Part shown: in pieces, positions 17,584 to 55,521 of the stretch
Layout: the number at the start of each line of letters is the position of its first letter
How positions within the stretch are numbered: the stretch's first letter is position 1
Sequence record: PZ445423.1
DNA: 58,567 nucleotides
Source: a phage
Strand: one strand, 5' to 3'
Position numbers and translations under genes: made by a program
Notes under the pieces: generated by a model
What the model saw: the letters and a program-made list of their open reading frames with translations, nothing else
What the model was told of the DNA's origin: nothing
Databases searched by the model: none

Positions 17584-17587
17584 ACAA

Positions 17588-17615
17588 AACCCCCGCTAAT
17601 GCGGGGTAATTTTTA
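17588..17615. terminator. bidirectional rho-independent terminator between convergent genes
   Basis: CCCCGC-taat-GCGGGG hairpin flanked by A-run (5') and T-run (3'), between the J-like gene and the - strand lipoprotein gene. Confidence 0.7.
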
Positions 17616-17846
17616 GTAATCTATAACACAGTTGGAAGGACTACCAATTCGTCGGTACTCGTGATCAATCTCATGGCACCATTGCCCGGTCATTGGAAGT
17701 TTTTCGGTATCGTAGATTAAAGAACCGTTACCGTCACGGTCTAAAGGTTTTGGAATAACACCGGAATTAGGCTTTCCTGTGTCCAAACCAGTACCGCAAG
17801 CAGATAACAGAAATGTTAATGTCAAAATTGCAATAGAACGTTTCAT
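17613..17846 (-). CDS. small outer-membrane lipoprotein, candidate receptor-blocking superinfection exclusion protein (Cor/Llp-like)
   Basis: Start at the ATG with SD AAAGGAG; signal peptide MKRSIAILTLTFLLSACG with lipobox LSAC; opposite strand, wedged between tail tip and fiber genes. Confidence 0.55.
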   Translation of the reverse strand: MKRSIAILTLTFLLSACGTGLDTGKPNSGVIPKPLDRDGNGSLIYDTEKLPMTGQWCHEIDHEYRRIGSPSNCVIDY

Positions 17847-17929
17847 CGGGACTCCTTTTAGGTTGTTGTCAAGGTTCAAGTTTAATATACTTGTTAGGTT
17901 GAGTAAGTCAATTAAATGTGGGAGAAATT

Positions 17930-19681
17930 ATGGCTACGCGCTTGCACGGTATCTTGCTGGATGGTTTGAATAAGCCAATTATTAACGCTACAGTTGCTTT
18001 GATAGCAAAAGGGAACACGATCACCGTATTGAACGGAAGCGAGGCAATATTCCGCACTGACGGATCCGGTGCGTATAATGTAACCGTACAAACAGGCCAT
18101 TATAAGGTGATCATTGGTCCGCAGGGTATTGAGCCTTATAAAGCGGGTGAAATTGTTATTTATGGTGATAGTCCTGAAGGTTCGCTCAACGGCTATTTAA
18201 TTAACTGGGCTCCGGAAGAGTTGACACCGGATGTTATTAAACAAGTCCAGCAACTTGTGGCTAACTCTGAGGAATACGCGTTACAAGCTGGTCGCTCTGC
18301 TGCGGCAGCTAAAAACGACGCAGACCGCGCAAAGACGGAAGCAGACCGTGCGGAATCTGCTGCTAACAATGCACCAGAAATCCAACCATTACCAGATGTG
18401 TGGATACCCTTTAATAATTCACTGGATATGATCACCGGATTCTCGCCGTCATACAAAAAGATTGTCATAGGTGATGATGAGATCACAATGCTAGGTGACA
18501 AGATTGTTAAGTTTAAACGCGCATCAGCCGCTACTTACATTAATAAGTCTGGCGTGTTCACAATTGCTGAAATCGATGAACCAAGATTTGAACGTGAAGG
18601 TTTATTGATTGAGGGCCAGAGAACTAACCTGCTAATCAATTCAACCAATCCGACTAAATGGAACAAGTCGTCAAATATGATCTTAGATAGATCAGGTGTA
18701 GATGATCTCGGATTTCAGTACGCAAAATTTACATTAAAACCAGAAATGGTAGGGCAAACTTCAGCGATTAACATAGTGACCGTTTCCGGCAGTAAAGGTT
18801 TTGATGTAACAGGAAATGAAAAGTATGTAACCATATCATGCAGGGCGCAAAGTGGGACTCCAAATTTAAGATGCCGATTACGATTTGAAAACTACGATGG
18901 TTCTGCTTATACATTTTTGGGTGATGCTTACCTAAATATGACAGATCTATCGATTGAAAAAACTGGCGGCGCTGCAAATCGTATTACTGCAAGGGCTGTT
19001 AAAGATAAAGCAAGCAAATGGATTTTCTTTGAGGCAACAATTAAAGCACTTGATACAGAAAATATGATCGGTGCAATGGTGCAGTATGCACCAGCAAAAG
19101 GGGGAGGTACTGGTGCAGATGATTATATTTATATTGCGACCCCTCAAGTTGAAGGCGGGGCATGTGCTTCATCCTTTATTATTACAGAAGCAACTCCAGT
19201 GACAAGGGCTAGTGATATGGTTACAATGCCAATCAAAAACAATATTTATAGCTTACCTTTCACAATACTGTGTGAGGTACATAAGAACTGGTATAAAACA
19301 CCAAACGCAGCACCTCGAGTTTTTGATACTGGCGGCCACCAAACTGGGGCGGCAATGATCCTTGGCTTTGGTTCTTCAACGGATTATGACGGATTCCCTT
19401 ATTGTGATATAGGTGGTTCAAACCGACGCGTTAATGAAAACGCTTCTCTTGAAAAAATGGTTATGGGGATGCGTGTAAAAGCAGATCAATTGACATGTGC
19501 AATAAGTAACGGACGTATATCCAGCGAAACAAAAACAACCTGGACTTACATTCAAAGCTCCGCAACTATTCGTATCGGTGGTCAGACAACGACAGGACAA
19601 GGTCATTTATTTGGCCATGTCAGAAATTTTCGAGTATGGCATAAAGCATTGACTGACCGTGAATTGAAGGAGTCTGTATGA
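17930..19681 (+). CDS. tail fiber / receptor-binding protein (putative)
   Basis: About 583 aa from the ATG at 17930 (SD GGGAGA); beta-rich N-terminus, Ala-rich coiled-coil segment, large C-terminal domain. Confidence 0.5.
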   Translation: MATRLHGILLDGLNKPIINATVALIAKGNTITVLNGSEAIFRTDGSGAYNVTVQTGHYKVIIGPQGIEPYKAGEIVIYGDSPEGSLNGYLINWAPEELTPDVIKQVQQLVANSEEYALQAGRSAAAAKNDADRAKTEADRAESAANNAPEIQPLPDVWIPFNNSLDMITGFSPSYKKIVIGDDEITMLGDKIVKFKRASAATYINKSGVFTIAEIDEPRFEREGLLIEGQRTNLLINSTNPTKWNKSSNMILDRSGVDDLGFQYAKFTLKPEMVGQTSAINIVTVSGSKGFDVTGNEKYVTISCRAQSGTPNLRCRLRFENYDGSAYTFLGDAYLNMTDLSIEKTGGAANRITARAVKDKASKWIFFEATIKALDTENMIGAMVQYAPAKGGGTGADDYIYIATPQVEGGACASSFIITEATPVTRASDMVTMPIKNNIYSLPFTILCEVHKNWYKTPNAAPRVFDTGGHQTGAAMILGFGSSTDYDGFPYCDIGGSNRRVNENASLEKMVMGMRVKADQLTCAISNGRISSETKTTWTYIQSSATIRIGGQTTTGQGHLFGHVRNFRVWHKALTDRELKESV

Positions 19682-19956
19682 AAGATATTATTTTAACATT
19701 TAAAGATAAGCAAGAATACCAAAATTTCTTGATTGGGATAAATTGGCAGGATAATGAGGAGCTTCAGGATAAGATCCTTCTGGACGAAATTGGTTACACC
19801 TATACAAACATATCCGGAAGTGAAGACGAAGAACCAGAATCAATTCGAAACGATGGTTACTTTGTTAATGTTCGTATCTTGAACTTTGACTTCAACCAGC
19901 AGATATTTGATGGATATGTGGTTACATTAGATCGACCTTTAAGAGAATGGGCGTAA
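19678..19956 (+). CDS. hypothetical protein, possible fiber assembly factor
   Basis: 92-aa ORF overlapping the upstream stop (ATGA) and lying between two fiber genes. Confidence 0.4.
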   Translation: MKDIILTFKDKQEYQNFLIGINWQDNEELQDKILLDEIGYTYTNISGSEDEEPESIRNDGYFVNVRILNFDFNQQIFDGYVVTLDRPLREWA

Positions 19957-19965
19957 GGAGCGTTT

Positions 19966-21498
19966 ATGGTAACTAAGACTATTATACCAACTGATATAAC
20001 CAAACTTAAATCTGATGTTGAAGCGATAAACGGAGAAGTATCAACATTAACGGAGGATACCTCCACGTTAAAGTCCGATGTGGGAACTCTAAAATCTGAC
20101 GTTGGCAACTTGAAAACACGAGAAATTGTGAATACAGATTGGACAGCGCAGCGACCACAGAATCAGCAGAACGATTCGTCTAGCAACTTCGGAACAGGCT
20201 ATAAATTAATCTCTCAAGGTATAGATATTGATGGAAAAACATATGCTGCGTCACTGGAAATGGTGCGGGTTAGATCTGACGGAATCATAAACGCGCGTAT
20301 TAATGTTGTTAACGCTGCTGGTGACTCAATATATTACGATTTTAATGATAATGGTGAAATTGTAGTTCCACCGAAACAAAATATTAGCTCAAGACGTTTT
20401 CGTATTGCAAATGATGGCACATCGTCAATGGATGGTCGGTTGAACATGTGGGGTGCTAGTACGCGCGCCGATGTTTTTGAATACGGCTGGAGTAGCGGTT
20501 ACGGCTTTTATATGCAGCGCAATACCGATAACTCAAGAGAGTTTCATGTAAATGGAACTATTACAGCAAATAACGTAAGTTCGGGATCCGACCGAGACTT
20601 GAAAACCGATATCGAAACTATCGCGAATGCTACCGAAAAACTGCGTAAGATATATGGATACACATATACACTTAAGTCCGACGGAATGCCTTACGCTGGT
20701 GTGATTGCACAAGAGGTTATGGAAGCGTTGCCAGAAGCGGTTGGTGGGATGACAGTTTACACTGAAGAAGATAAGGAAATAGGGACGCGTTACCTTACTG
20801 TTAACTATTCTGGTATTGTTGGTTTGCTTGTTCAGGTATGTCGTGAAGCTGGTGCGGCTGGTATCGGTGGCGCGATCGGTGGCTTAATTGGTTCCTGGAT
20901 CGGTAATGGTTGGGGTGGCAATGGTGGCTGGGGTGGTCGCGGTAACTTCGCTGGTCCGGTGGAAGTGCAAGCTTCTGTTGACACCAACGCAATTCTGCAA
21001 GCTATCAACAACGGTACTCTTCAGACCATTCAGGGTCAGAACGGTACTAACCTGACTGTTGAGCGCTCCGCTGCTTCTACCTATAACGGTATTACTCAGC
21101 AGAACACTCAAAACCTGCTGGCTTCCGTTCAGGGTTTTGCTGGTCTGAACACACAGATCCAGGGCGGCACCAGCCAAGTGCTCGCGGCTCTGTGTAACAA
21201 CGAAGCAGCTAACATTACCCGTTCCTTCCAGGCGCAGCTAGAAGCTCAGAAGTGTTGCTGCGAAACCAACCTGAACATCGAGCGTCAAGCAGAAGCTACT
21301 CGTGCGCTCCTGCGCGATCAGCACGCACAAGCGCAAGCTGTTCTGATCTGTGACCTGAAGTCCCAGTTGCAGGAAGCTCGCTTTGCAAACTCTCAGTTGG
21401 CGCAGACGGCTGGTCTTACCTGTAAGATCAATCAGGTTGAGCAGTTAGTTAACTTTAAACTGCCAACTCCTCCGACTCCTCCGACTAGCTGCTGCTAA
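19966..21498 (+). CDS. tail fiber with S74-type intramolecular chaperone domain and long low-complexity C-terminal extension
   Basis: SD AAGGAG; N-terminal LKSDVGTLKSDVGNLK repeats; GSDRDLKTDIETI...AGVIAQEVMEALPEAV matches the S74 autoproteolytic chaperone signature; ~220 more residues follow. Confidence 0.7.
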   Translation: MVTKTIIPTDITKLKSDVEAINGEVSTLTEDTSTLKSDVGTLKSDVGNLKTREIVNTDWTAQRPQNQQNDSSSNFGTGYKLISQGIDIDGKTYAASLEMVRVRSDGIINARINVVNAAGDSIYYDFNDNGEIVVPPKQNISSRRFRIANDGTSSMDGRLNMWGASTRADVFEYGWSSGYGFYMQRNTDNSREFHVNGTITANNVSSGSDRDLKTDIETIANATEKLRKIYGYTYTLKSDGMPYAGVIAQEVMEALPEAVGGMTVYTEEDKEIGTRYLTVNYSGIVGLLVQVCREAGAAGIGGAIGGLIGSWIGNGWGGNGGWGGRGNFAGPVEVQASVDTNAILQAINNGTLQTIQGQNGTNLTVERSAASTYNGITQQNTQNLLASVQGFAGLNTQIQGGTSQVLAALCNNEAANITRSFQAQLEAQKCCCETNLNIERQAEATRALLRDQHAQAQAVLICDLKSQLQEARFANSQLAQTAGLTCKINQVEQLVNFKLPTPPTPPTSCC

Positions 21499-30120: not shown

Positions 30121-30665
30121 TTTAATACCTCTTTAGACTGTTCAATTTCTAACGCACGCTGTGCTGACGCAATAATGTCTTTCAAATCTTCTACAAGAGT
30201 CTTATGACCGCGTTCGCCAGGCTGCAACGCCTTTTTAATCAAATGTTGTAAAGCTGGGTTAGTTGTCTTCCAAGCTTCCAAGACATCATACACGTCTACG
30301 ATACATTTTACAACATTCCCATTTTGATCTTTACCATAAATAATTTTCTGATATTTATTCATGGGAATTTTAGATGGTTCGTATTTCATAAAAATTGCGG
30401 TTTTGTCAATTCGCCAATCGGGTAAATTCCCTTCAATGGCTTGCTTGGCATAATCCTCCGCAACAATATAACGCCAAGATATAACCGAATCCCGTTCTAA
30501 CGGTATTGCGTTATCGCAGGATTTTTTATACCAGTCCCATCCTTGCTTATGGTTTTTCTTAAGAGAACCGTCAGCTAATTGAACTTCAAACTGTTCGTTT
30601 TGAAGAAAAATGGGCATTCCTTTCCCATCGTGCTTGTGCCAGATTTTATTAAGATTATCTTTCAT
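30117..30665 (-). CDS. hypothetical protein embedded in the 7-deazaguanine cluster
   Basis: 182 aa from the ATG at 30665; start follows the transporter stop by a few nt and the stop overlaps the queD start; no motif recognised. Confidence 0.45.
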   Translation of the reverse strand: MKDNLNKIWHKHDGKGMPIFLQNEQFEVQLADGSLKKNHKQGWDWYKKSCDNAIPLERDSVISWRYIVAEDYAKQAIEGNLPDWRIDKTAIFMKYEPSKIPMNKYQKIIYGKDQNGNVVKCIVDVYDVLEAWKTTNPALQHLIKKALQPGERGHKTLVEDLKDIIASAQRALEIEQSKEVLK

Positions 30666-36624: not shown

Positions 36625-37533
36625 TCAATCTTTCCCGTAATAATTAGCTACTTGATAGTTTTGACAACCAACTTTCTGTCCTTGCGTATCCACTGAGGCG
36701 GAATGGAAATTGCAATACCATGTTCCATCTTCTTTTGGCTCAAGGAATTGACATGTACGGCAGTTTACTTCCGGCATAGTTTTACGCCAGCATAGTGAGG
36801 AGTGATCGCACCATTTACATTCGAAGAAAGTGGAATCTTTAAATGCACGGTCCGGAATATCTGTAGCAATAGCAATCTGCACACCACGATCAATATACAT
36901 GTCCGCGGTAACAGGATCAAACGGAATAATTTCTGCGTAAACTTCATCGTCATTCTTGTTTACAGCAAGATATAACGCTGCGCCAAGACCTAGTTTTCGC
37001 ATGTACACGTTCATCTGTACATAGTGCTCAGGTTTAGCTTCTTTGACACCTTTAGCTTTCAGCTTTTTAAAAGACTTATCGTTATGCGTCTTCATTTCGG
37101 TAAGCACAGGCATCCCAGGCTGCACGTCCGGACAACCTATAACCACACCATCGCAGGAACCGCCAAAGTGTCCGCCAGCTTCGCTGATACGAAACTGGTG
37201 TCCGTTTTCGTCCTGCTGATAGACCTGCATACCTGCCGCGAGCAGCATAGCAATAAAGCGCGCTTCTTCCAGATGTCCGCGGTTAAACAGTCGAAGCTGG
37301 CGTCCGTCAAACTCTTTGCGTGTAGCCCAGCGATATCCATAGAAAAGCTTTCGTGCGCATTGTTGACCAATAAGGGAAGCGCCTAAGTGACTGCGGTTAC
37401 CGCTTTCAGGACGATAAGCGTCTTCAATTGTGGGAATAACTACGCCAAGATATTTACGGTAAGTCCCGCCCTGATCTTTTTGCACACCATCATTGATCGC
37501 TTGAAGTGTTTTTTCTGCAATATAAATAGCCAT
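36625..37533 (-). CDS. PD-(D/E)xK nuclease with C-terminal Cys cluster (Cas4/RecB-like exonuclease)
   Basis: 302 aa, SD AAGGT; C-terminal CKWCDHSSLC...CRTC...C consistent with an Fe-S-binding Cas4-like nuclease. Confidence 0.65.
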   Translation of the reverse strand: MAIYIAEKTLQAINDGVQKDQGGTYRKYLGVVIPTIEDAYRPESGNRSHLGASLIGQQCARKLFYGYRWATRKEFDGRQLRLFNRGHLEEARFIAMLLAAGMQVYQQDENGHQFRISEAGGHFGGSCDGVVIGCPDVQPGMPVLTEMKTHNDKSFKKLKAKGVKEAKPEHYVQMNVYMRKLGLGAALYLAVNKNDDEVYAEIIPFDPVTADMYIDRGVQIAIATDIPDRAFKDSTFFECKWCDHSSLCWRKTMPEVNCRTCQFLEPKEDGTWYCNFHSASVDTQGQKVGCQNYQVANYYGKD

Positions 37534-37598
37534 TGGAATACCTTAGAAAAATAAGCCGTCTTTCGACGGCTTATGGACACTACAGAGGGAGGGTTAAC

Positions 37599-38483
37599 TT
37601 ACTGCTGCCACGGCGGGACTGCTGCTTGTGCCGGATGCGGTTCAGCTTGCTGCTGTGGCTGAGCTTGCTGCTGAGGCGCTGCTGCCTGGCCCGGCTGCGC
37701 TACCTGCTGCGCCCACGGCTGCTGAGCTGCTTCCGGTGCTACTGGCTGTTGTACCGGAGCTTGCTGCACTGGCTGCTGTGGTGCTGCGTTTTGAGCAGGA
37801 TTATCCCACGGCTGCGGTGCGGCATTCTGCCACGGTTGTGCTGCTGCGCCCTGCTGTGGTGCTGGTTGCTGCACTGGCTGCTGAACTGGTTGCTGTTGCT
37901 GCACCGGAGCTTGCTGCTGTACAGGCGCTTGCTGTTGCTGTGCAAACGGGTTAGCTGCTGGTTGCTGAGGTGCTGCGCCCGGGAAAGCTGGCTGCTGTGC
38001 TGGCGCACCTGCACCGAACGGGTTAGCTACTGCCGCTTGAGCACCCATTGCTGGAGCACCTGCTTCTTTTTCTGCATACTTAACCGGATCGTTGATGTTA
38101 GCATAACCGTTAGGCTCGTTGCTGTCTTCATAACCTTCCTGAGAACGAACTTTCAGACGCAGGTTCAGCGGAATGTTATGCAGTTGAGAAGGAGTATCCC
38201 AGCGAATTACGCCAACCGCATGGGAAAGCGCGCCCAGTTGTTCGTATGCGATACGCACAGTATCTTCGTTGTCGTTGATAACGTTGTAACGAGCAAAGAT
38301 TTTACGACCTTTAGCAAAACCATCAATGATGCTAAACGTTACCTGGATCGCCATACCGCCATTTTTGGTCGGTTTAAATTCAGATGCTTCAATTACTGCT
38401 TTATACCAACCTTTCGGCAATGCGCCGTAAGAAGGTGCTTGATAGCTGCTCGCGTCAAAGTGGAAATTAGTTGGCATAGTCAT
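37599..38483 (-). CDS. DUF669-like ssDNA-binding protein with Gln/Pro/Ala-rich tail
   Basis: 294 aa; globular N-terminal ~140 aa followed by a long low-complexity tail (QQQAPVQQQAPVQQQQPVQQ...); coupled to the ATPase gene. Confidence 0.55.
   Translation of the reverse strand: MTMPTNFHFDASSYQAPSYGALPKGWYKAVIEASEFKPTKNGGMAIQVTFSIIDGFAKGRKIFARYNVINDNEDTVRIAYEQLGALSHAVGVIRWDTPSQLHNIPLNLRLKVRSQEGYEDSNEPNGYANINDPVKYAEKEAGAPAMGAQAAVANPFGAGAPAQQPAFPGAAPQQPAANPFAQQQQAPVQQQAPVQQQQPVQQPVQQPAPQQGAAAQPWQNAAPQPWDNPAQNAAPQQPVQQAPVQQPVAPEAAQQPWAQQVAQPGQAAAPQQQAQPQQQAEPHPAQAAVPPWQQ
37610..38000. repeat. low-complexity CTGCTG/GGCTGC-type DNA repeats
   Basis: Degenerate tandem triplet repeats encoding the Q/P/A tail; the complementary strand gives a spurious 317-aa ORF. 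Confidence 0.6.
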
Positions 38484-39211
38484 TAGTTAATACCTTTCAT
38501 TTTGTTGATAACAGAACCTAAGTGTGGGACTTCAACCGCATCTAAACGTCCCGAACGATCCTTAGCGATTGTATTAAAGTCCGGTTGAGTTTGCAAGTAA
38601 CGATACGAGTTACCTTGCTGATCCTTATTTACATTCAGACGAAATACTTCGTCGAAGAAGTAAGGGAGCATTTGCCCCAATTTGGATCCAGGCATAGATG
38701 GAGCATACGCGGTAACACCGGAGACTTCATCTTTGTCTTTGCCCATTTTAGCAGACATATAAACATGTTTGCCAGGAATATCGCGAAATTTACGGATCAG
38801 ATCTTGCATCTTTTCAAGCAAAGTACCATAAGCTTGACGAGGATCTTTCGTTCCCTTTTTCGCGTTGTTTAAACATTGTTCAGCAATTTCGCTCAAGCTG
38901 TCAAGCGCAATAGAATCGAAATACTGCTGGTTAGCTGGAGTTACGCACCACTGATAAGCCGCTTCAACGTCTTCCAGACATTTCACTTCAATTACCGGAA
39001 TATCGTAAACGATGGGCAAACCCATGTTACCATAAACACGGTTAAGGTTTTCCGCTGCAATAGACAACAGACCGGATTCTGCGCTGATTAAAATTGGTTT
39101 AGGTAGTGTGGCTACAAGGCTGGTTTTACCCATACCTGCTTCACCGTAAACCAGAATTTTAACACCTGTGTCCTGCACAACTTGTGAAGACATTTTAATT
39201 TCAATGGCCAT
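38483..39211 (-). CDS. RecA-like ATPase (AAA_24 / Sak4-like recombination protein)
   Basis: 242 aa; Walker A GEAGMGKTS at the N-terminus; follows the pattern of phage Sak4-type recombinases. Confidence 0.65.
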   Translation of the reverse strand: MAIEIKMSSQVVQDTGVKILVYGEAGMGKTSLVATLPKPILISAESGLLSIAAENLNRVYGNMGLPIVYDIPVIEVKCLEDVEAAYQWCVTPANQQYFDSIALDSLSEIAEQCLNNAKKGTKDPRQAYGTLLEKMQDLIRKFRDIPGKHVYMSAKMGKDKDEVSGVTAYAPSMPGSKLGQMLPYFFDEVFRLNVNKDQQGNSYRYLQTQPDFNTIAKDRSGRLDAVEVPHLGSVINKMKGIN

Positions 39212-44177: not shown

Positions 44178-44581
44178 TTTTCATTCCTCACAATTTCATT
44201 AGCTTCTTTCCACATAGCTTCTCCGTACTTGTCAATGCAAGAGCGAGCAAAGTATCCGTCACCATAGCAGTAATTCATCATGGTGCGATACTTACCTTTA
44301 CCCTGAATGCGACGGGCATCGTCCAGACACTTAGCGGACGGCATTCTTTTACCCGAGGCAGCTTTTTGAACTTTTTCTTCTGTGGCAGCTTTTTGGTGTT
44401 TTATTTTACCGTTCATAAAGCGATAGCCGTTTTTTCTAGCAACGGAACGGGCCTCATCTTCGGTAATCATAAATACGGTATGATACCCAGGCTCCATAAT
44501 TTCCGTCTCGGTTACGCAACCATAACCAACTTTCATATAAAGATGACCGATATTCACTTCAAAGTAATGTAAGTATTTCAT
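44174..44581 (-). CDS. hypothetical protein
   Basis: 135 aa from the ATG at 44581 (SD GAGGTG); the N-terminal extension in the track lacks an SD. Confidence 0.4.
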   Translation of the reverse strand: MKYLHYFEVNIGHLYMKVGYGCVTETEIMEPGYHTVFMITEDEARSVARKNGYRFMNGKIKHQKAATEEKVQKAASGKRMPSAKCLDDARRIQGKGKYRTMMNYCYGDGYFARSCIDKYGEAMWKEANEIVRNEK

Positions 44582-45073: not shown

Positions 45074-47416
45074 TTATTCCTCTTCTCCTAAGTTTGCCAT
45101 AATACCTTCAACATCTTGCGTAATGCGCCAAGCTGCGCCAGTGAATCCCAGTTTGATAGTCTCCTCCCGTGTTACCGGAACAAGAGCACCCATAGCAACC
45201 ATCTCTTTGATCGTAGACTCAATTGCTGCGGACAATCCGTGGTGATAGTTTTTAAACGCGGACTTACTTGCAAGACGAGTAGTAATGTCACCCCGCGTGA
45301 TAATACCTTCTTTACGCAGATCTACACGTTTAACTTTCACCCAATCTTTAGTTAGATAATTGACACAAACCTGGCACATAGTACGGATACGAGCTTCGTC
45401 ATTAGTACCAATACCCCCACTATGCCATTCCTTCATAATGATATCCTGTCCATGACGCACAAAGTCCAAGGCCCATTGAACATGATAGGTTTGCACAACC
45501 GGATTGATCCAGTTTTCTCCCACAGCTAACAGGGCGGATAGACGTAACACCTTCAGGTGCGCACGGTTCCACGGCTGACGGATTGCTTCGTCTTTGGTTG
45601 CGTTAATATTACGATCACATTCGTCGTTAAACTGATCGCATAATGCTTCCGCTTCTGGACTAAACTGCACTTCAATACTTTGATGCTTTGCCATTGCGAC
45701 TAAGGTGTGGTTAACAAGATGGCACACCATATCACGCAAATGCTGATCCATTGTAGTCTGCTGGTTCTTGTTTAAAGGTGGTCGATCACCTTCATAGCGG
45801 ACAACATGGAAACGGGATAAGAATCCATCCTCCATCATTTCACGGGTTAACGCTTCAAAAAACGTGTCCGGTGTTGTTTCGCCCATGATGCTATAGGCCA
45901 CACCTTGTTGTGCTTCCGTATTATTAGCCTTATCAGAATAAGACATACCACCAACAATAGACATCTGACCGGACTTTTGATAAACATCGGTAAGATCATT
46001 CTTGAAGCTTTGCATCGGTGAACCTGCTGGCGCCGTAGCCATTGCTTTAATAATCTTACCAAACTCACCGTTCAAGTTGATAAAAGATTGTTTGTCCGCA
46101 AAAGATTTACGCAGTGCGGAGCCGGAAGCACATCGGTCAAAAGATACAAAGCTATGAATCTGCGGAAACGGTTCCTGAAGCTGGCTAACTATATTAGATA
46201 AGCCACTGTTCAACGTTTCTTTACCAACACCAGAACGGGCAATAAGGACGAAATATCCATTAAGACCGGATTGAGGAATCTGCCAAACCTTCCCGCATAC
46301 GCCAGCCATAAATCCTAGTGCTGTCACAATAGAAATTTCTTTCACTGGTCGGACGGATGCTTTGTAGATATACTTCGCAAGCTCCCCAGCAAGTCCCGGC
46401 GGCCAGTCAATGGCGGTTGCATCAATAGACGTACTTTCTGCAACTACGGTCTGCCCCTGTGTTGTTTCAACAGTTACGGGCATTTCCGCTACCTGTTGCA
46501 TTGCACTGTGTGCCGCTTGCATACGGGCAGCATAATCCCGCGCCAGCGCCGCTACGTTTTCCTGGGCAATGCGCTCACGCTCCATGCGACCGCGACACAT
46601 ACGCAAGCAACGGTCAATATGAACATTGTTCTTATTAGCCTTCTCACGTTTGCCCAGTGCACTATAACGGAACAGACGACGACATTGCTCATTACTTTCC
46701 GTGTAAAATGCATACATAGAAATAAGGGCAAGGTCTGCTTCAGACTGGGAAGGGAAACCCATTTCAACCCATTCACCATTAAATAACCGCGCATACTTAT
46801 CGCCGTTATCTGCTTCAAGCGCACGCTGATGAATAGTTGCATCATCTTCTACCGGATCTTTTTCTACTAGTTCAATTTCATATGTCTTGCGCTGAAGATC
46901 AATTTCATTCACAAGCATAGTAAGGTAATGATCACGTTCTGCAACTGGTTTGTTGTAGACGGGATTGCCCGTGCAGATAATAAAACGCTCCTGACTATAA
47001 ACCTCAACACCATCACGTCGACGACCTTTACCAATGTTACCTCTTAACCACAGGTGAACACCCAGGCCTGAGCGACTTACTTCGGTGTAAGTATCGAACG
47101 CAGTCATGATCTGTTCGAAGCGGCGCAACTGCTCCGGCGTCGTGTGCTTCTTGGGATCCGGTTCATTGGTCGCATTCTTCACATCCAGGTCGATGCAGGT
47201 GAACGGATCTTGTGCAGTAAGCACAAAGCCAATATAAGGTTTATTGAAATGAGCGGCGCAACCTTTGGCAGCTTCAAACGTCATAAGCATATCCGGATCG
47301 GTAACGTCCGCCGCCATCAAACGTCCAATATCGTTATCCCATACGAGCGGTTTCTTGTCCGCATCGGCCACCGCCCATTGTGGGAAAGCTTTAATTTCAG
47401 CGGGAAACAGTTCCAT
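45074..47416 (-). CDS. primase/helicase (primase-polymerase-like N-terminal domain plus P-loop NTPase domain)
   Basis: 780 aa, SD AAAGGA; acidic N-terminal FTCIDLDV segment; central P-loop-like IARSGVGKETL; largest replication ORF. Confidence 0.65.
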   Translation of the reverse strand: MELFPAEIKAFPQWAVADADKKPLVWDNDIGRLMAADVTDPDMLMTFEAAKGCAAHFNKPYIGFVLTAQDPFTCIDLDVKNATNEPDPKKHTTPEQLRRFEQIMTAFDTYTEVSRSGLGVHLWLRGNIGKGRRRDGVEVYSQERFIICTGNPVYNKPVAERDHYLTMLVNEIDLQRKTYEIELVEKDPVEDDATIHQRALEADNGDKYARLFNGEWVEMGFPSQSEADLALISMYAFYTESNEQCRRLFRYSALGKREKANKNNVHIDRCLRMCRGRMERERIAQENVAALARDYAARMQAAHSAMQQVAEMPVTVETTQGQTVVAESTSIDATAIDWPPGLAGELAKYIYKASVRPVKEISIVTALGFMAGVCGKVWQIPQSGLNGYFVLIARSGVGKETLNSGLSNIVSQLQEPFPQIHSFVSFDRCASGSALRKSFADKQSFINLNGEFGKIIKAMATAPAGSPMQSFKNDLTDVYQKSGQMSIVGGMSYSDKANNTEAQQGVAYSIMGETTPDTFFEALTREMMEDGFLSRFHVVRYEGDRPPLNKNQQTTMDQHLRDMVCHLVNHTLVAMAKHQSIEVQFSPEAEALCDQFNDECDRNINATKDEAIRQPWNRAHLKVLRLSALLAVGENWINPVVQTYHVQWALDFVRHGQDIIMKEWHSGGIGTNDEARIRTMCQVCVNYLTKDWVKVKRVDLRKEGIITRGDITTRLASKSAFKNYHHGLSAAIESTIKEMVAMGALVPVTREETIKLGFTGAAWRITQDVEGIMANLGEEE

Positions 47417-47427
47417 GATTTATCCTT

Positions 47428-47643
47428 TTACTGAGAACTAACCATTGCACAACCGATGGCAGCAAATAAGTGCTTCTTAGTCTCGTTGATCACTTTCTCT
47501 GCATCCAGATAGCTCTCATAATGTCCAAGGTAAACAATAGTACCTGCAACCATAATATAAGCTGTGCGGTAATGCATATAATACCCAATGAACCATCCCT
47601 GCCCCCGAAGCTTATTTTGTCCAACTTCACTAAGTACCATCAT
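47428..47643 (-). CDS. hypothetical protein
   Basis: 71-aa ORF overlapping the upstream gene end. Confidence 0.35.
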   Translation of the reverse strand: MMVLSEVGQNKLRGQGWFIGYYMHYRTAYIMVAGTIVYLGHYESYLDAEKVINETKKHLFAAIGCAMVSSQ

Positions 47644-47843
47644 GACCTCCGACGCTTATCGCCTTGCATCTTTTCCAGGGCGGGTACTGCTAAGGAACGT
47701 TTGTAGATGTACTGGTTAGCAATTCTGATGGCGCCCGGGATGTTGTCACGTATGCGCGACATCTTAAACTTAGATATGCCATAACGGTCTTCAATTTCCG
47801 CCGCCGTTATGTAGTTCAAATCAAATTCCGATTCGTGATCCAT
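47640..47843 (-). CDS. small putative HTH DNA-binding protein
   Basis: 67 aa from the ATG at 47843 (SD GGAGGG; track start is TTG); ITAAEIEDRYGISKFKMSRIRDN looks like a helix-turn-helix. Confidence 0.35.
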   Translation of the reverse strand: MDHESEFDLNYITAAEIEDRYGISKFKMSRIRDNIPGAIRIANQYIYKRSLAVPALEKMQGDKRRRS

Positions 47844-47908
47844 AATACCCTCCGTTACAACCGTCCACACAATACACAGTAAAGTCTTACTTTGCAACTA
47901 TTTTTGCA

Positions 47909-48637
47909 TTATTGCGGAGTTGTGATAATATGGTTACCAACTTCTAACATAACGTCCTGAGGCTCCCGTCCCTGTCTTAAGCTAATGAGCCAATTATCAA
48001 TATTAGGAAGAATATTTTTAGCCTGCTCAGAATCCCTGTATAGCGCAAGGTCTACCCATTGAGCCCCAAGCTTCACACGGATAGCGGTAGCGGTTTCGTA
48101 ATGGTGCAGGGAACACGTAGGCCAGCGACCGCGATTATCCCAATCCTGGATATCCCCGCTCCGGCGCATTCTGTACCAGCGATGGGTCAATTTATCCATT
48201 TCCTTATCCGTCAGAGCGTCTCCTTTAAGCAAAGCTTGGCGCTGTATCCAGGCCTTGAGATCGGCGTTTTCCTTGCGCCCGGTTTTACCCTTATCTACTT
48301 TTACCTTCAGTGCTTCCTCATAAGGATCGTTACCCTTGCCCATGTGGTAATTGAATTTGCCCGTATAGCTACGAAGCTCTTTGGCGTCCAGCTCATGTCC
48401 CAACTTATCGCTAACCCATGCAAGGAAAGCCGCACGCTCTGCATCCAGTTTACCCGCTTTTTGTCTTACCGCTTTTTTAATTGGTTGCTCCACATCTTCG
48501 TTGAAGTAATCCTCCACCATAGCAAGCGCCTGAGCCTTAGTGGGCACGCCCCGTAACCGCGAGCACGCTTGCACGACCCAGGCAGCAAAGCACAAATCCT
48601 TAACCACAGTTTTAGATGTAATAGTTTCTTCGCTCAT
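47909..48637 (-). CDS. hypothetical protein (first gene downstream of the AT-rich control region)
   Basis: 242-aa ORF with strong SD AGGAGG. Confidence 0.45.
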   Translation of the reverse strand: MSEETITSKTVVKDLCFAAWVVQACSRLRGVPTKAQALAMVEDYFNEDVEQPIKKAVRQKAGKLDAERAAFLAWVSDKLGHELDAKELRSYTGKFNYHMGKGNDPYEEALKVKVDKGKTGRKENADLKAWIQRQALLKGDALTDKEMDKLTHRWYRMRRSGDIQDWDNRGRWPTCSLHHYETATAIRVKLGAQWVDLALYRDSEQAKNILPNIDNWLISLRQGREPQDVMLEVGNHIITTPQ

Positions 48638-48776
48638 AAATCCTCCTAGTGAACTGGTAATGTCACTATAAAACAGCTATTAGCTATTTGCAAGAATTGT
48701 TTTAATATAGTGCTTAGTGGCGTACATAGTGGGCAAAACGTGTATAGTACGCCGTTACTGGCTTTGTAAAAGTTTG

Positions 48777-48808
48777 CCACTATAAACCACTATCCCACTA
48801 TTCACTAA
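48777..48808. repeat. three direct CCACTAT repeats plus a degenerate fourth copy
   Basis: CCACTATaaaCCACTATcCCACTATTCACTAA; copies start at 48777, 48787 and 48795. Confidence 0.6.
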
Positions 48809-48911
48809 TTTTTTATTTTTACACAGAGCAAAGTTTATAAGTTTACGGTTTTCCCCTTATTACCCCGTTTTCAAACAAAGAATTAGTAGTAGTAGTGAAA
48901 ACGTGTAAATG

Positions 48912-48933
48912 CCACTATCACTACTATACTATT
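48912..48933. repeat. second CCACTAT/CACTACTATACTAT repeat cluster
   Basis: CCACTATCACTACTATACTATT. Confidence 0.5.
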
Positions 48934-49306
48934 AATTATCTGAAAAAAGTTGGGAGTATACCCCTATAAACTTATAAACTTTCAGTCAACTAACTAAAAT
49001 AAAACTAATTAAACTAATATTAATAATAACTATAAATATATATAAAATAAGGATTTATTATTATTGTATATAGTACCTATTGGTATTATGTGATGAGTTT
49101 ATAGTCACTAAATAAACTCTATAAATTTTAATAAACCTGAACGGATGCAGATCAAAAATGAGAAGTCAAGTGCTTTTGAGGGAAATTTATTGAACTATTG
49201 TGATCGGAAGGTATATCAAGCTATAATGCGCTTAATCGCGGGATATTGGAGGAGGACTTTATTGCGCGGTTAACCGGACCAGTAGGAGGGCTGGCCCGGA
49301 AGTAGT

Positions 49307-49633
49307 TTAGAGCTGTACAGGTGTGAAGTGGGCTAATGTGTCGTCGGACATAATACCAGACAGTTTTTCGGTTACCCATTCGGACCAAATACTATCCGGT
49401 TCCTGGCGGTGCACAAACCAGATTTCGGATGTGCCTTCTTTGCGCATCGGTTGCACTTCTACAAGGAACTTGTCCTGCATAAGGCGGGTGAAGCATACGC
49501 TGGTCATTGGAACCGGCTTTTCGTCTTTATTGTAATAAGGGATTAATATTTTATTTCCGAAGTTAGCAACTTCATAAACCGTTCCTTTGCGAAGACCTCT
49601 GATGTCAGTGTAAGAGCGGATGAACGTTTTCAT
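49307..49633 (-). CDS. hypothetical protein
   Basis: 108-aa ORF with SD AGGAG. Confidence 0.45.
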   Translation of the reverse strand: MKTFIRSYTDIRGLRKGTVYEVANFGNKILIPYYNKDEKPVPMTSVCFTRLMQDKFLVEVQPMRKEGTSEIWFVHRQEPDSIWSEWVTEKLSGIMSDDTLAHFTPVQL

Positions 49634-49686: not shown

Positions 49687-50301
49687 TTATGCGTCCAGTC
49701 CGTTGTATTTTCGCCAGGCGTAGAACTGAATGGCGACAGTTGTTCCGTTGTAAGAAGGCATTGCTGCTTTCATTTCTTTCAGCTCGGGGGTACGACCCAG
49801 CTCACTTAAAAGTTTGTCACCCATTGCCCACACTTCGGCAGTTTTTCCTTTGAGCGGCTTGCGAGCGCCATTTTTGAAATCACAGCGAGCAGCTTTTGCA
49901 TCCTGTTTTGGCGCGGCAGCTTTTGGCTCTTCAATTTTGATTTCAGAAACCTGCGTGGCAGCTTTTGCGTGTTTCATATCTTTCTCTTCCTCCTGCTCCA
50001 GAGCTTCGAGGCAGCTTTTGACAATTTCCGGATTTACCATCGGGCGCAGTACCGAGACGCTGGCAGCTGGCGCGGCGGTCGGTGCCGGGACTTTCTGCTC
50101 CGGCTGTTGCGCTTTTTTATGGTCGCGCAGCACCTGAAGCACTTCCTTTTCGATGATGTAAAAACCAATATCGTCCTGATGGATTAACTGTTCGTGTGCA
50201 TCGCGTGCAACCTGGCCCCAGCGGGTCTTAAGGGCGCGGCGTGCATTCGTTTTCATGGTGTAACGCATTTTGTCCTGTTCGCGGTGAGTTACTTTAGACA
50301 T
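49687..50301 (-). CDS. hypothetical protein with Ala/Pro/Lys-rich linker
   Basis: About 204 aa from the ATG at 50301 (SD AGGAG). Confidence 0.45.
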   Translation of the reverse strand: MSKVTHREQDKMRYTMKTNARRALKTRWGQVARDAHEQLIHQDDIGFYIIEKEVLQVLRDHKKAQQPEQKVPAPTAAPAASVSVLRPMVNPEIVKSCLEALEQEEEKDMKHAKAATQVSEIKIEEPKAAAPKQDAKAARCDFKNGARKPLKGKTAEVWAMGDKLLSELGRTPELKEMKAAMPSYNGTTVAIQFYAWRKYNGLDA

Positions 50302-50374
50302 GGTATAGCTCCTTTCGTTAATGTTAGTTTGCTTATTACTGCCCACCGTAATGATGAGCAGTGTATAAGAAAAC

Positions 50375-51452: not shown

Positions 51453-51596
51453 ATGGCACGCAAATATTCGCTTACACGCGCACAACATGCTTTATTATTG
51501 CAGGTTATGCGCATGGAGTACGAAGAGACTACATGGGCGCAAGCTATGCAGACAGGGCGCGAGTTCTACGCGCAACTAATAGCACAAAATGCCTAG
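51453..51596 (+). CDS. hypothetical small protein
   Basis: 47-aa ORF (MARKYSLTRAQHALLL...) with SD AAGGGGT; below the track's size cutoff. Confidence 0.3.
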   Translation: MARKYSLTRAQHALLLQVMRMEYEETTWAQAMQTGREFYAQLIAQNA

Positions 51597-51625
51597 ACAA
51601 CATGATCGGTCTGGTGGATACTACA
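51594..51625 (+). promoter_or_regulatory. candidate promoter, copy 2 of the repeated element
   Basis: TAGACA-a-CATGATCGGTCT (exact 12-mer shared with copy 1) then GATACT; ~30 nt upstream of the ATG at 51656. Confidence 0.35.
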
Positions 51626-51655
51626 CACATCAACCAAACAACGGGGGTAAACAAA

Positions 51656-51883
51656 ATGCGTAGTTTCAAATGTGTAAGCGTAAATGCTACTGGTAACGGT
51701 CTGTTCACGGCAGGTAATGTATATGACTTCAACATGGAAAGTTATAAAGACACAACGCTTACAGGTGTAATGTTCGGTGGCGCTCGTGTCGTTCGCTGCC
51801 ATTTAAACAAGAACACGGAAAATGAATATACCCTTATCAGTCGCTACACGGGCGAGCCGTTAGCTGTGTTCCATGCAGCTTAA
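51656..51883 (+). CDS. hypothetical small protein
   Basis: 75 aa with SD GGGGGT; same frame as the track's 198-aa ORF, whose upstream part looks non-coding. Confidence 0.4.
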   Translation: MRSFKCVSVNATGNGLFTAGNVYDFNMESYKDTTLTGVMFGGARVVRCHLNKNTENEYTLISRYTGEPLAVFHAA

Positions 51884-51960
51884 GCTATAACGCACACAGC
51901 GCCGCGCTAGCGATCTAATGTACATAGGTAATGGTAATGCATTAGCTCGGGCGAAACGGG

Positions 51961-52317: not shown

Positions 52318-52581
52318 ATGTGCGACTCCAGTACAAGCGCTTCACCCAGCACCTCCAGCAATGTGGTTACAGAGGTAAATGCAATGCGATTAGGCCCATA
52401 TCGCGGGTATTATGGTCGGGCAGCATGGAATGACGCTACTCAACGTTTTGAAGGCTGGATTATCTGTCCGGAACGTGTTAAATTTCATTCCGTAAAAGAG
52501 AAAAATATCGTTCTTAATTTTCAAAAATGTGTCACTAAATATGTAGAGGAGCAAGAAGAATGTCTTATGTGTCAGCATTAG
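52318..52581 (+). CDS. hypothetical protein
   Basis: 87-aa ORF with strong SD AAGGAGGT 7 nt before the ATG. Confidence 0.45.
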   Translation: MCDSSTSASPSTSSNVVTEVNAMRLGPYRGYYGRAAWNDATQRFEGWIICPERVKFHSVKEKNIVLNFQKCVTKYVEEQEECLMCQH

Positions 52582-52925
52582 AAGCTGCTGGATGCGAAGT
52601 ATTAGATTTTGTTGAGTTTGGTTGTTATCAGGGTGAATGGCTTGCCCTGATAAGAAAAGATGGTGTATTGGGAGTTTGCGAAGGGTCTTATGGATCATGC
52701 TCTGGTTGCGATTCATTTGAAGCTGAATTTGGCTGGCATAATGAGGAAAGTCCCGATTATCAGAAACGTCTTGCTGAATTTGGTAAAAGTTACTTACCAG
52801 CTAACAGCTTTGAAGAAATGATCGTCAAACTTCAAAAGGATATTGAGAATTATGATTGGGATGACGATTATAAATCTATGTTAGAAACTGTTCGTGACTG
52901 GCAGAAAAATATAGGACAAGTATAA
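52560..52925 (+). CDS. hypothetical Cys-containing acidic protein
   Basis: 121-aa ORF with SD AGAGGAG; contains CEGSYGSCSGCDSFE. Confidence 0.45.
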   Translation: MSYVSALEAAGCEVLDFVEFGCYQGEWLALIRKDGVLGVCEGSYGSCSGCDSFEAEFGWHNEESPDYQKRLAEFGKSYLPANSFEEMIVKLQKDIENYDWDDDYKSMLETVRDWQKNIGQV

Positions 52926-54895: not shown

Positions 54896-55102
54896 ATGGA
54901 AACTCCATTAGCTAAACAAATGATAGAGCGTGCGGATCGGGACGGTTTACCGGAAGACCATGCTATGCGTCGAACTGCCCAGGTATTTGACGAAATTAGC
55001 GTTAAATACGCGATGGGTAAGAGCACGCCTAAAGGTTTATTGGGTGCTTGGGCTCGCGCTCGACGCTGCTGGTGTAACTATACCGGAGAACCTCTTGTAT
55101 GA
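54896..55102 (+). CDS. hypothetical protein
   Basis: 68-aa ORF. Confidence 0.35.
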   Translation: METPLAKQMIERADRDGLPEDHAMRRTAQVFDEISVKYAMGKSTPKGLLGAWARARRCWCNYTGEPLV

Positions 55103-55521
55103 TAAAACACGTTAAACAGCCAACGTTGAATACATGCGTTTCTGCGTGTTTGGCAATGATTCTTAATAAACCTGTTGAGAAGGTCATTGAGGAATTTCAT
55201 AGTCGTTATTATAACAACTGGGAAATCACTATCAGCGAATATTTGACTAAAAACAGCGTCATGCATCATTGTTCAGAAGGTGGTGGGCGTGAAACTTTGC
55301 ATATGGGAGGTTTGTTCCTATGCACGGTGCCAAGTCTTAATATTCCTGGCGCATTGCACCAGATTGTGATTGATATGACGGATCACAAGTTTATTGTGCA
55401 TGATCCAATTAAAGGATGGGAAGGTAAAAAGTTCTATGTTGGTCCGGATCAAGATCCTGAAGAGCCTGGAGCTTTTATCATTCATACTTGGGTCAAAGAC
55501 GTTGAAATCCTGCCTTATTAA
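55099..55521 (+). CDS. papain-like cysteine peptidase, C39-like
   Basis: 140 aa; N-terminal QPTLNTCVSACLAMIL matches the Q-x5-C-G-x-A-C-L-A-M-I catalytic-Cys signature of C39 peptidases; a downstream FIVHDP could supply the His. Confidence 0.5.
   Translation: MIKHVKQPTLNTCVSACLAMILNKPVEKVIEEFHSRYYNNWEITISEYLTKNSVMHHCSEGGGRETLHMGGLFLCTVPSLNIPGALHQIVIDMTDHKFIVHDPIKGWEGKKFYVGPDQDPEEPGAFIIHTWVKDVEILPY

Follow-up and report, generated by a model that had tools for sequence, protein, structure and literature searches.

Here we examine a gene-free stretch of about 670 bp (positions 48638-49306) in sequence record PZ445423.1, the complete genome of a Seurat-like coliphage of the genus Seuratvirus (Queuovirinae). 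With somewhat more confidence than doubt, we interpret it as the replication origin and replication-control region of this phage, composed of two protein-DNA modules around an invariant AT-rich core. The window, by which we mean the whole stretch of DNA analysed, is this genome at its full length of 58.6 kb (58,567 nucleotides). We consider an origin the most likely reading because two sets of repeats each change together with one replication protein, and because they are arranged around the DNA that melts most readily in this genome. A first-pass annotation had already proposed an origin here, built on iteron-like CCACTAT repeats beside AT-rich DNA. The proposal survives in part, on other grounds: the repeats flanking the core co-vary with the tail of the primase-helicase, and the region stands at the head of the operon that encodes it. 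The CCACTAT copies themselves are probably not the origin iterons, as they co-vary instead with a segment of the neighbouring 242-amino-acid (aa) protein, and one copy overlaps the -10 element of its promoter.

The comparative set comprised 33 GenBank records, many of them near-identical, and metagenomic loci (L numbers denote loci of the set); a scan of IMG/VR contributed three loci, and a metagenome pattern scan returned mostly chance matches, with about 12 loci usable. Every one of the 33 records has a gene-free stretch of 630-830 bp at the same locus. The window's version is 97% identical to that of Escherichia phages KS_A3, KS_S4, SLUR75 and SHIN8, and no match to the region was found in plasmids or E. 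coli genomes. It lies between two minus-strand genes, encoding the 242-aa protein (47909-48637) and a 108-aa protein (49307-49633). The lack of a credible open reading frame (ORF) noted in the first-pass annotation is borne out by the relatives, in which a 44-aa (- strand) and a 42-aa (+ strand) ORF called by some pipelines are broken or absent; we rejected both as genes on account of this poor conservation. Alignment of the relatives divides the region into three zones, the features of which are collected in Table 1. Zone A, from 48638 to about 48960, varies among the relatives and bears the hexamer clusters; zone B is AT-rich, with an almost invariant core whose flanks come in discrete types; and zone C (49133-49306), nearly invariant across the genus, carries a plus-strand promoter and two hairpins. 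A literature search found no paper on the origin of Seuratvirus or Queuovirinae, nor on Seuratvirus promoters or termini; on how Queuovirinae control their replication genes, none was found either.

The AT-rich core and the primase-helicase tail

The AT-rich stretch that had been likened to a DNA unwinding element is as extreme as described, reaching 88% A+T at 48973-49072. The least stable 100-bp duplex of the genome lies at 48989-49088, where the nearest-neighbour free energy (dG) is -96, against a genome mean of -135.8 (standard deviation (sd) 7.5) and a next-lowest value of -113. This places the AT core more than 5 sd below the mean and puts DNA with the instability of an unwinding element directly beside the repeats. 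The core is also near-invariant across 18 distinct sequences, including those of the distant metagenomic Y lineage.

The motif TAAACT occurs seven times in 48800-49140, as compared with 1.2 times in shuffled sequence (none of 2,000 shuffles reached seven). Left of the core, copies in + orientation start at 48967, 48975 and 49010, and copies in - orientation at 48832 and 48840. The TTATAA(G/A)(T/C)TT repeats reported by the first-pass annotation (TTATAAGTTT and TTATAAACTT) are present, and can now be understood as the two arms of a perfect 16-nt inverted repeat. In the phages designated S-type below, both arms are swapped together (AAAGTTTTGGGTTTTTGG and CCAAAAACCTAAAACTTT), and the right-hand repeats are replaced by GTCGCAAAACTCACAAAA. 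On this comparative basis the TAAACT repeats appear to be better candidates for initiator sites than CCACTAT.

The replication protein with which these repeats change is a 780-aa fusion of a primase-polymerase (prim-pol) and an MCM-like helicase. Its N-terminal part (residues 61-264) matches PriRep5 of SaPI5, a Staphylococcus aureus pathogenicity island (SaPI; PDB 7ola, E=7.7e-11), as well as NrS-1 primase chains. An AlphaFold2 (AF2) model of residues 270-780 (predicted local distance difference test (pLDDT) 89, predicted template modelling score (pTM) 0.85) has its best Foldseek matches in the PDB among MCM helicases, and the tail in this model ends in the order strand-helix-helix-strand-strand (residues ~700-775). 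A homologue search with the tail alone returned no match.

Three forms of the protein can be told apart. Over the C-terminal 500 aa, members of the W form (window, CAjan, Seurat and others) are at least 98% identical, and the S form (Skure, SA80RD, Greed, Dru_SM1 and others) is about 65% identical to W, while the N-terminal 280 aa are 100% identical in W and S. The Y form, that of the L021/L024 lineage, has a third tail together with a third type of flank; compared with S, its ATPase body is 70-90% alike, its last ~120 aa only 17-38%, and its flank differs too. These last ~120 aa are the most divergent part of the primase, with 17-55% identity among the forms. The repeats on both sides of the AT core follow the same division, being TAAACT-type in W, CAAAAC-type in S and of the third type in Y, and tail and flank match without exception in the 33 GenBank records and in loci L018-L024, L056, L057, L095 and L109. 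The DNA between tail and flanks (primase N-terminus, AT core and promoter) is about 100% identical across the groups, and the associated islands are therefore non-contiguous. Moreover, the cassette of hexamers situated between primase gene and core does not follow this division, its type I being found with W, S and Y. From these few independent events, the pattern would fit functional coupling of tail and flanks better than simple linkage.

Hexamer clusters and the 242-aa protein

All the hexamer copies listed in the first-pass annotation are present in zone A at the positions it gave (Table 1), the three direct CCACTAT copies being spaced 10 and 8 bp apart and followed by TCACTAA. Counted on both strands, CACTAT occurs seven times in 48638-48960, where 0.11 copies would be expected from the rate in the rest of the genome (Poisson P=4e-11), and none of 2,000 dinucleotide shuffles of the region reached seven. 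Five of the eight genomic copies of CCACTAT fall within 200 bp here, and no pair of CACTAT copies 60 bp or less apart exists elsewhere in the genome. A repeat search of the region found no tandem arrays of the Tandem Repeats Finder (TRF) type. The conserved core is 6-7 bp long without conserved flanks, and the copies stand at spacings of 6-19 bp in mixed orientation; they do not fit the classical picture of 17-22 bp direct repeats at helical spacing.

In phages CAjan, Seurat, slur01 and SLUR76 (type II), 11-13 copies of CCCTAT/ATAGGG take the place of the window's CACTAT/ATAGTG (type I), at positions aligned with the window copies and in the same layout of two dyad clusters plus promoter copies. 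Cluster 2, for instance, aligns with TAGGGGTACTAGGG ... CCCTATACCCTACTCCCTAT of CAjan in homologous surrounding context. In 16 GenBank and about 12 metagenomic genomes, hexamer type matches the variant of the adjacent protein without exception, CACTAT being paired with a 242-248-aa form and CCCTAT with a 251-263-aa form. Segment-wise identities show that residues 47-115, a basic linker followed by two helices, are the only part of the protein that partitions by hexamer type (56-94% within type I, 51-75% within type II and 34-42% across types), while residues 116-160 and 161-242 re-assort against it. Locus L023 encodes a chimera in which a type II-like 47-115 segment is fused to a C-terminal part resembling that of the type I phage SA126VB. 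The switch between types was seen in two genomic backgrounds, once between the window and CAjan and again between L024 (ten copies of CACTAT) and L021 (nine of CCCTAT), which share a diverged background with primases 95-100% identical and each carry the matching protein type.

Other candidate readers of the hexamer were considered and rejected. The primase is about 100% identical between the type I window and type II CAjan, and therefore does not set hexamer specificity; the helix-turn-helix (HTH)-like protein of the operon is type I-like in type II L021; and the C-terminal beta-beta-beta-alpha domain of the 242-aa protein re-assorts against hexamer type. From these comparisons we infer that residues 47-115 are the part with which the 242-aa protein binds the CACTAT hexamers. 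No relative of this protein was found in Pfam, NCBIfam or the PDB, its family numbers 11 clusters among 5.8 billion proteins, and an AF2 model (pLDDT 75) has no significant structural neighbour. By eye, the protein appears to contain an internal duplication, in which residues 61-101 and 125-160 each form a helix-loop-helix unit with the pattern F.AW......G..L..KE......K[FW]Y; the first copy falls within the specificity segment.

The predicted promoter of the operon, a 9/12 match in a promoter scan with a 17-nt spacer, has a CACTAT copy (48664-48669) overlapping its -10 element. Its CAjan equivalent, TTGCAA-17-TACCAT, overlaps a CCCTAT copy, so that the overlap exists in types I and II alike. 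By comparison among relatives, then, the repeats have beside them a gene whose product matches them in type, with a candidate operator over its own promoter. Both hexamers are missing from the Skure-type phages, which bear GGAATA and tandem AGTTTTGYR repeats; in them, three small genes replace the 242-aa gene, and the product of one has a sub-threshold match to the AP2 domain (E=2e-4). In all, about one third of the genus is without both the hexamer repeats and the 242-aa protein. Conservation of the repeats at this locus, which the first-pass annotation had made a test of its proposal, thus has a divided outcome: relatives have them as CACTAT or CCCTAT, and one third of the genus lacks them. 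The CCACTAT repeats are probably the sites of an accessory or autoregulatory factor and not those of the initiator, because they co-vary with the 242-aa segment, have one copy overlapping the -10 element and are absent together with the protein from that third of the genus.

In four phages (Skure L005, GottfriedDienst L006, VogelGryff L007 and Dru_SM1 L008), an insert of about 100 bp rich in GGAATA/TATTCC replaces window positions 49133-49187. It lies between the AT core and the + strand promoter, and in Dru_SM1 it is present without the Skure-type small genes.

The dyad arrangement of the clusters could also be viewed as a sign of structured RNA stems or single-stranded DNA (ssDNA) hairpins, with the change from CACTAT to CCCTAT and from ATAGTG to ATAGGG reflecting base-pair compensation. 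Both clusters are imperfect palindromes, an A-to-C change on one arm is paired with T-to-G on the other, S-type phages have both arms of the outer 16-nt inverted repeat altered jointly, and ssDNA fold z-scores run from -1.7 to -3.5. Compensation does not, however, require a common hexamer in every stem, and isolated copies, such as that at the promoter -10, switch likewise. Inside each arm the copies are repeated directly every 6-11 bp, shuffled sequences fold with energies only modestly worse, no Rfam family matches and the switch tracks one protein segment. We regard stems as a quite improbable explanation of the hexamers.

Both co-variations might instead have arisen from the lineage structure of the phages and from mosaic recombination, the locus being a hot spot with many homing endonucleases; the repeats would then have no specific protein partner nearby. 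HNH genes do appear and vanish around the locus, many of the ~30 genomes are near-identical so that independent events are few, and physically linked segments tend to be inherited together. This explanation nevertheless seems unlikely, in that the associated segments are split by the near-identical stretches described above, with a cassette between them that assorts independently; that 7-13 copies of one hexamer in 320 bp are beyond chance; and that the I/II switch recurs in a second background.

Origin or transcriptional control region

At the right edge of the region, the + strand promoter (49198-49227) is better conserved than any other 30 bp in the 1.8 kb compared. In Dru_SM1 (L008), SLUR76 (L013) and L023, homology stops exactly after its TATAAT and is followed by a + strand HNH gene whose leader is related; a homing endonuclease appears to use this promoter or to have captured it. 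Next to it, the hairpins were annotated as a terminator by the depositors of SA80RD and SA126VB, who also placed promoters here. In the Y lineage the stems differ in sequence, and hairpin and loop motif are retained. Hairpin 1 contains a U.G wobble pair on the + strand reading only and hairpin 2 a G.U wobble on the - strand reading only, the asymmetry of hairpin 2 being found again in the diverged Y lineage; three GGAGG (+) / CCUCC (-) motifs are conserved in 49232-49299. The alternative left open by the first-pass annotation, early promoters or a small RNA, finds a counterpart in this conserved promoter and structured leader (49198-49299), and none in a known RNA family: an Rfam 15 scan of 48400-49500 (E<=1) returned only snoZ173, at 20 bits where the gathering score is 70 (E=0.97).

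These elements bring forward the chief competitor of an origin, a purely transcriptional control region in which the 242-aa protein would act as repressor or activator on hexamer operators and time the replication operon, with replication starting elsewhere. Clusters 1 and 2 might be joined by looping, and the AT core and TAAACT copies might serve as promoter, UP-element or nucleoid-protein sites. Such a region would account for the hexamer over the operon -10 in both types, the very conserved + strand promoter and the annotations in two relatives. It leaves unexplained why flank repeats on both sides of the core co-vary with the tail of a primase-helicase across identical intervening DNA, and why the core combines an invariant sequence with the lowest duplex stability in the genome. 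In addition, the repeat clusters are confined to this region, and such a factor would regulate one site only. We hold transcriptional control without an origin to be a serious possibility that is nonetheless doubtful on present evidence.

Several observations weigh against an origin at this place, some of which the transcriptional explanation also claims. Sequence scans gave no conserved DnaA box, and no IHF consensus was found in the window, CAjan, SA80RD, Skure or L024; the involvement of DnaA or IHF, suggested in the first-pass annotation as something to assay, is therefore unsupported. One third of the genus dispenses with the hexamer module. Cumulative GC skew, another check the annotation had called for, has a slope change near 49000 that is compatible with an origin and is indecisive, given that the minimum is a broad double trough (49000 and 52356) and that the curve elsewhere follows gene orientation. 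The region stands ahead of the operon, 1.2 kb upstream of the primase start, while SaPI origins lie immediately downstream of rep; and phage Vid5, with a primase 58% identical, has no comparable gap within 3.5 kb upstream. Right of the core, a single TAAACT copy (49096) opposes the left-hand set. The primase-helicase has no sequence match to 7ola beyond the primase domain, 7ola is outside the top 50 Foldseek matches of the helicase half, and a winged helix in the tail is predicted from the secondary-structure pattern alone. The W/S/Y association could partly reflect clade structure, because independent events are few (about three per co-variation). Finally, the window and CAjan differ in six further blocks, so this pair taken alone leaves room for a hexamer binder encoded elsewhere.

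In the interval from cluster 1 to the inverted repeat, the window has a relaxed DnaA box, TTTTACACA (48817-48825), which CAjan, SA80RD, Skure and L024 all lack.

In the sister genus Nonagvirus, phage JenP2 has a gene-free region of 1034 bp (NC_028997.1, 51502-52535; L113, 203-1236) that heads the same leftward operon. It contains the repeats TGCAAAGTTTTTGC, ATTTATAAAG (three copies) and GCAATATACGA (three copies) and an AT-rich stretch, and has no sequence similarity to the window. The operon promoter (48693-48665) and the + strand promoter of the window both face away from the AT core, and only weak candidates face in. This is not the arrangement of transcription-primed origins, such as the T7 primary origin and T4 oriF/oriG, in which a promoter reads into a downstream AT-rich element.

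Read as an origin, the region could work as follows. The prim-pol/MCM-like helicase would recognize TAAACT repeats through its variable C-terminal tail, at 48967, 48975 and 49010 to the left of the AT core and at 49096 and 49113 to the right; it would load at these flanks, the core (49032-49089) would melt and the prim-pol domain would prime. Experiments have established a scheme of this kind for the self-loading Rep/PriRep5 helicases of SaPIs and, reportedly, for P4 alpha. In the second module, the 242-aa protein would bind CACTAT in the two dyad clusters and at the -10 copy through residues ~47-115. It may thereby autoregulate the replication operon, because one hexamer copy sits over the -10 of its own promoter, and possibly aid or gate origin firing. 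The + promoter and the two hairpins would mark the end of the convergent upstream transcription unit.

A bolder form of this model, which we put forward as tentative, is a two-layer replicon with exchangeable cassettes. In it, the MCM-like prim-pol helicase loads itself at hexamer repeats on either side of the invariant AT core and its tail sets the flank type, and the 242-aa protein, as a hitherto undescribed family of sequence-specific DNA-binding proteins, gates both the origin and its own operon by a second, one-base hexamer code (CACTAT versus CCCTAT) read through a helical segment of ~70 residues. If so, the shuffling of layers would point to selection for replicon specificity or exclusion among co-infecting relatives, and Skure-type phages would offer a third interchangeable solution in their small AP2-like proteins.

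A recognition site for packaging (pac or cos) would also be a long conserved non-coding region with repeats, and a few deposited genomes (SLUR76, ECP2304) are opened nearby. The terminase genes, however, are ~9 kb away (in the window, terL starts at position 1; in CAjan, terS/terL occupy 1-2095), genome starts are arbitrary and differ between records, and nothing ties terminase to the repeat types. We consider a packaging site highly improbable.

The wider locus and comparable replicons

Table 1. Positions of the predicted and observed features in the region and its operon (window coordinates; a dot marks features without strand)
Feature	Position	Strand	Remarks
Prim-pol/MCM-like helicase, 780 aa	45074..47416	-	PHROG DNA primase; Pfam NrS1-1_pol-like_HBD
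Hypervariable C-terminal tail of primase	45077-45466	-	last ~130 codons; tail types W, S, Y
Small HTH-like protein, 67 aa	47640..47843	-	phrog_11967; HTH by eye, no Pfam/NCBIfam match
242-aa orphan protein, first gene of primase operon	47909..48637	-	phrog_27223, function unknown; candidate CACTAT binder
Predicted operon promoter and leader	48642..48693	-	-35 TTGCAA 48693-48688; -10 TATAGT 48670-48665; Shine-Dalgarno GGAGG 48646-48642
Hexamer cluster 1, dyad-arranged	48707..48808	.	ATAGTG 48707/48726; ATAGTA 48744; CCACTAT 48777/48787/48795; TCACTAA 48802
Left arm of 16-nt inverted repeat, AAAGTTTATAAGTTTA	48830..48845	.	two reversed TAAACTT units
Hexamer cluster 2, dyad	48884..48933	.	TAGTAGTAGTAGTG ... 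CCACTATCACTACTATACTATT (the latter at 48912-48933); ssDNA fold z=-3.0
Right arm of 16-nt inverted repeat, TAAACTTATAAACTTT	48967..48982	.	with TAAACT at 49010, left-hand candidate helicase iterons
Invariant AT-rich core, candidate unwinding/initiation site	49032..49089	.	within 83% A+T stretch 48983-49131
Right-hand TAAACT-type repeats	49096..49118	.	AGTTTA 49096 (opposite to left-hand set); TAAACT 49113 (+)
Predicted sigma-70-like promoter, rightward	49198..49227	+	TTGTGA-N18-TATAAT; 10/12 match
Two hairpins with GGAGG/CCTCC motifs	49232-49273, 49274-49299	.	from folding; 3' end of 108-aa transcript and/or + strand leader

The 242-aa gene leads an operon that continues with the genes for the 67-aa HTH-like protein, a 71-aa protein and the primase, downstream of which lies a small opposite-strand gene. 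The HTH-like protein is kept beside the primase in Seuratvirus, Vid5 and JenP2, being encoded directly upstream of it in the latter two. The 71-aa gene (47428-47643, - strand) is missing in CAjan and Seurat. By eye, an AP2-like pattern can be seen in its product and in the 89-aa and 93-aa proteins of Skure; of these, only the Skure 93-aa protein matched Pfam AP2 (E=2e-4, below the cut-off). HNH endonuclease genes are a variable element of the locus: KS_A3, CAjan and WildeMaa carry them upstream of the phrog_22313 gene, SA80RD, Dru_SM1 and L023 carry them in the stretch from the HTH gene to the primase, and the window has none of them. The window ORF at 49687-50346 (- strand) begins 15 codons upstream of its family profile.

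Where the complete window and CAjan genomes can be aligned, they share 94% identity. Their divergent block at this locus (47417-48830) runs from the exact end of the primase gene to the left inverted-repeat arm, and hexamer cluster 2, just past it, falls in sequence that can be aligned between the two. Elsewhere, the blocks that are unaligned or less than 85% identical are 44178-44578, 30125-30582, 51504-51886, 52563-52917, 54899-55110 and 16560-20839; the largest is the tail-fibre region, and the rest contain small genes of unknown function. The densest hexamer cluster of the genome is found at 37600-37700 (GCAGCA 13 times, CAGCAG 12 times). It is coding, with long ORFs overlapping on both strands (37533-38486 on +, 37599-38483 on -).

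Among known systems, the closest are the SaPIs, whose Rep proteins, PriRep5 included, are self-loading initiator-helicases in which a C-terminal winged helix reads the iterons; the origins have 6-12 iterons of five or six nucleotides, which an AT-rich region in the middle divides into two groups, each side having at least two in opposite directions (PMC9371898). SaPI5 PriRep5 (PDB 7OLA) and the window primase are alike in joining a prim-pol to a hexameric AAA+ helicase in ~780-800 aa with homologous N-termini. The two origins would share 5-6 bp repeats in 6-12 copies, an AT-rich centre and copies in opposite orientation, as well as the lack of DnaA boxes and of a separate loader. In both, specificity is assigned to the C-terminal domain of the helicase (in the window, by comparison only). 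Unlike the SaPI origins, which immediately follow rep, the window site is upstream of the operon; its helicase half is best matched by MCM proteins and not by 7OLA, it has an extra hexamer module with its own orphan protein, its AT core is invariant in sequence, and the element belongs to a lytic E. coli siphovirus.

The alpha protein of phage P4 (PDB 1KA8) reportedly combines primase, helicase and a C-terminal origin-binding domain in ~780 aa. The P4 ori and crr repeats are 8 bp long, in mixed orientation and in two clusters 4.5 kb apart, and the protein Cnr modulates binding to them. P4 thus resembles the window in having one ~780-aa polypeptide, short repeats and, as proposed for the window, a second small protein in control. 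The window protein, with its archaeo-eukaryotic primase (AEP) type of prim-pol and MCM-like helicase, differs from alpha, whose primase is Toprim-type and whose helicase belongs to superfamily 3 (SF3), and the two have no sequence similarity. The lambdoid O/ori-lambda system is comparable in that an initiator segment co-varies with repeats beside an AT-rich region and that modules are exchanged by recombination. Lambda iterons, however, are 18-19 bp long and lie inside the O gene, and lambda recruits the host DnaB via P; the 242-aa protein has no similarity to lambda O.

Iteron plasmids (pSC101, pPS10, P1 and F) likewise have repeats of one motif beside a DNA unwinding element, with extra copies over the promoter of an adjacent gene, but theirs are direct repeats of 17-22 bp that Rep reads as a winged-helix monomer, and DnaA boxes are usual (PMC4980987). 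The window repeats, by contrast, are 6-7 bp long and arranged in dyad clusters, without conserved DnaA boxes. BcMCM of Bacillus cereus is said to be a prim-pol-MCM fusion of prophage or phage origin, and fusions of this type share with the window primase the architecture of a prim-pol joined to an MCM-like AAA+ helicase. We know of no cognate origin defined so far for a fusion of the BcMCM type.

The Queuovirinae, among them Seurat, CAjan and BASEL phages Bas21-25, are widely chosen as model coliphages in work on 7-deazaguanine DNA modification and in screens of defence systems. For these phages, our analysis points to a candidate origin core, to a tail of the primase-helicase that may serve in recognition, and to an orphan protein whose specificity segment is mapped and whose two types of site differ by one base; assignments of this precision make origin mapping, replicon engineering and specificity-swap experiments straightforward. 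The mechanism we propose is of a known kind, that of SaPIs and P4, and what would be new is its setting in a lytic coliphage, the second swappable layer of specificity and the orphan protein family. If the reading is true, it would extend the self-loading initiator-helicase type of origin to a lytic E. coli siphovirus.

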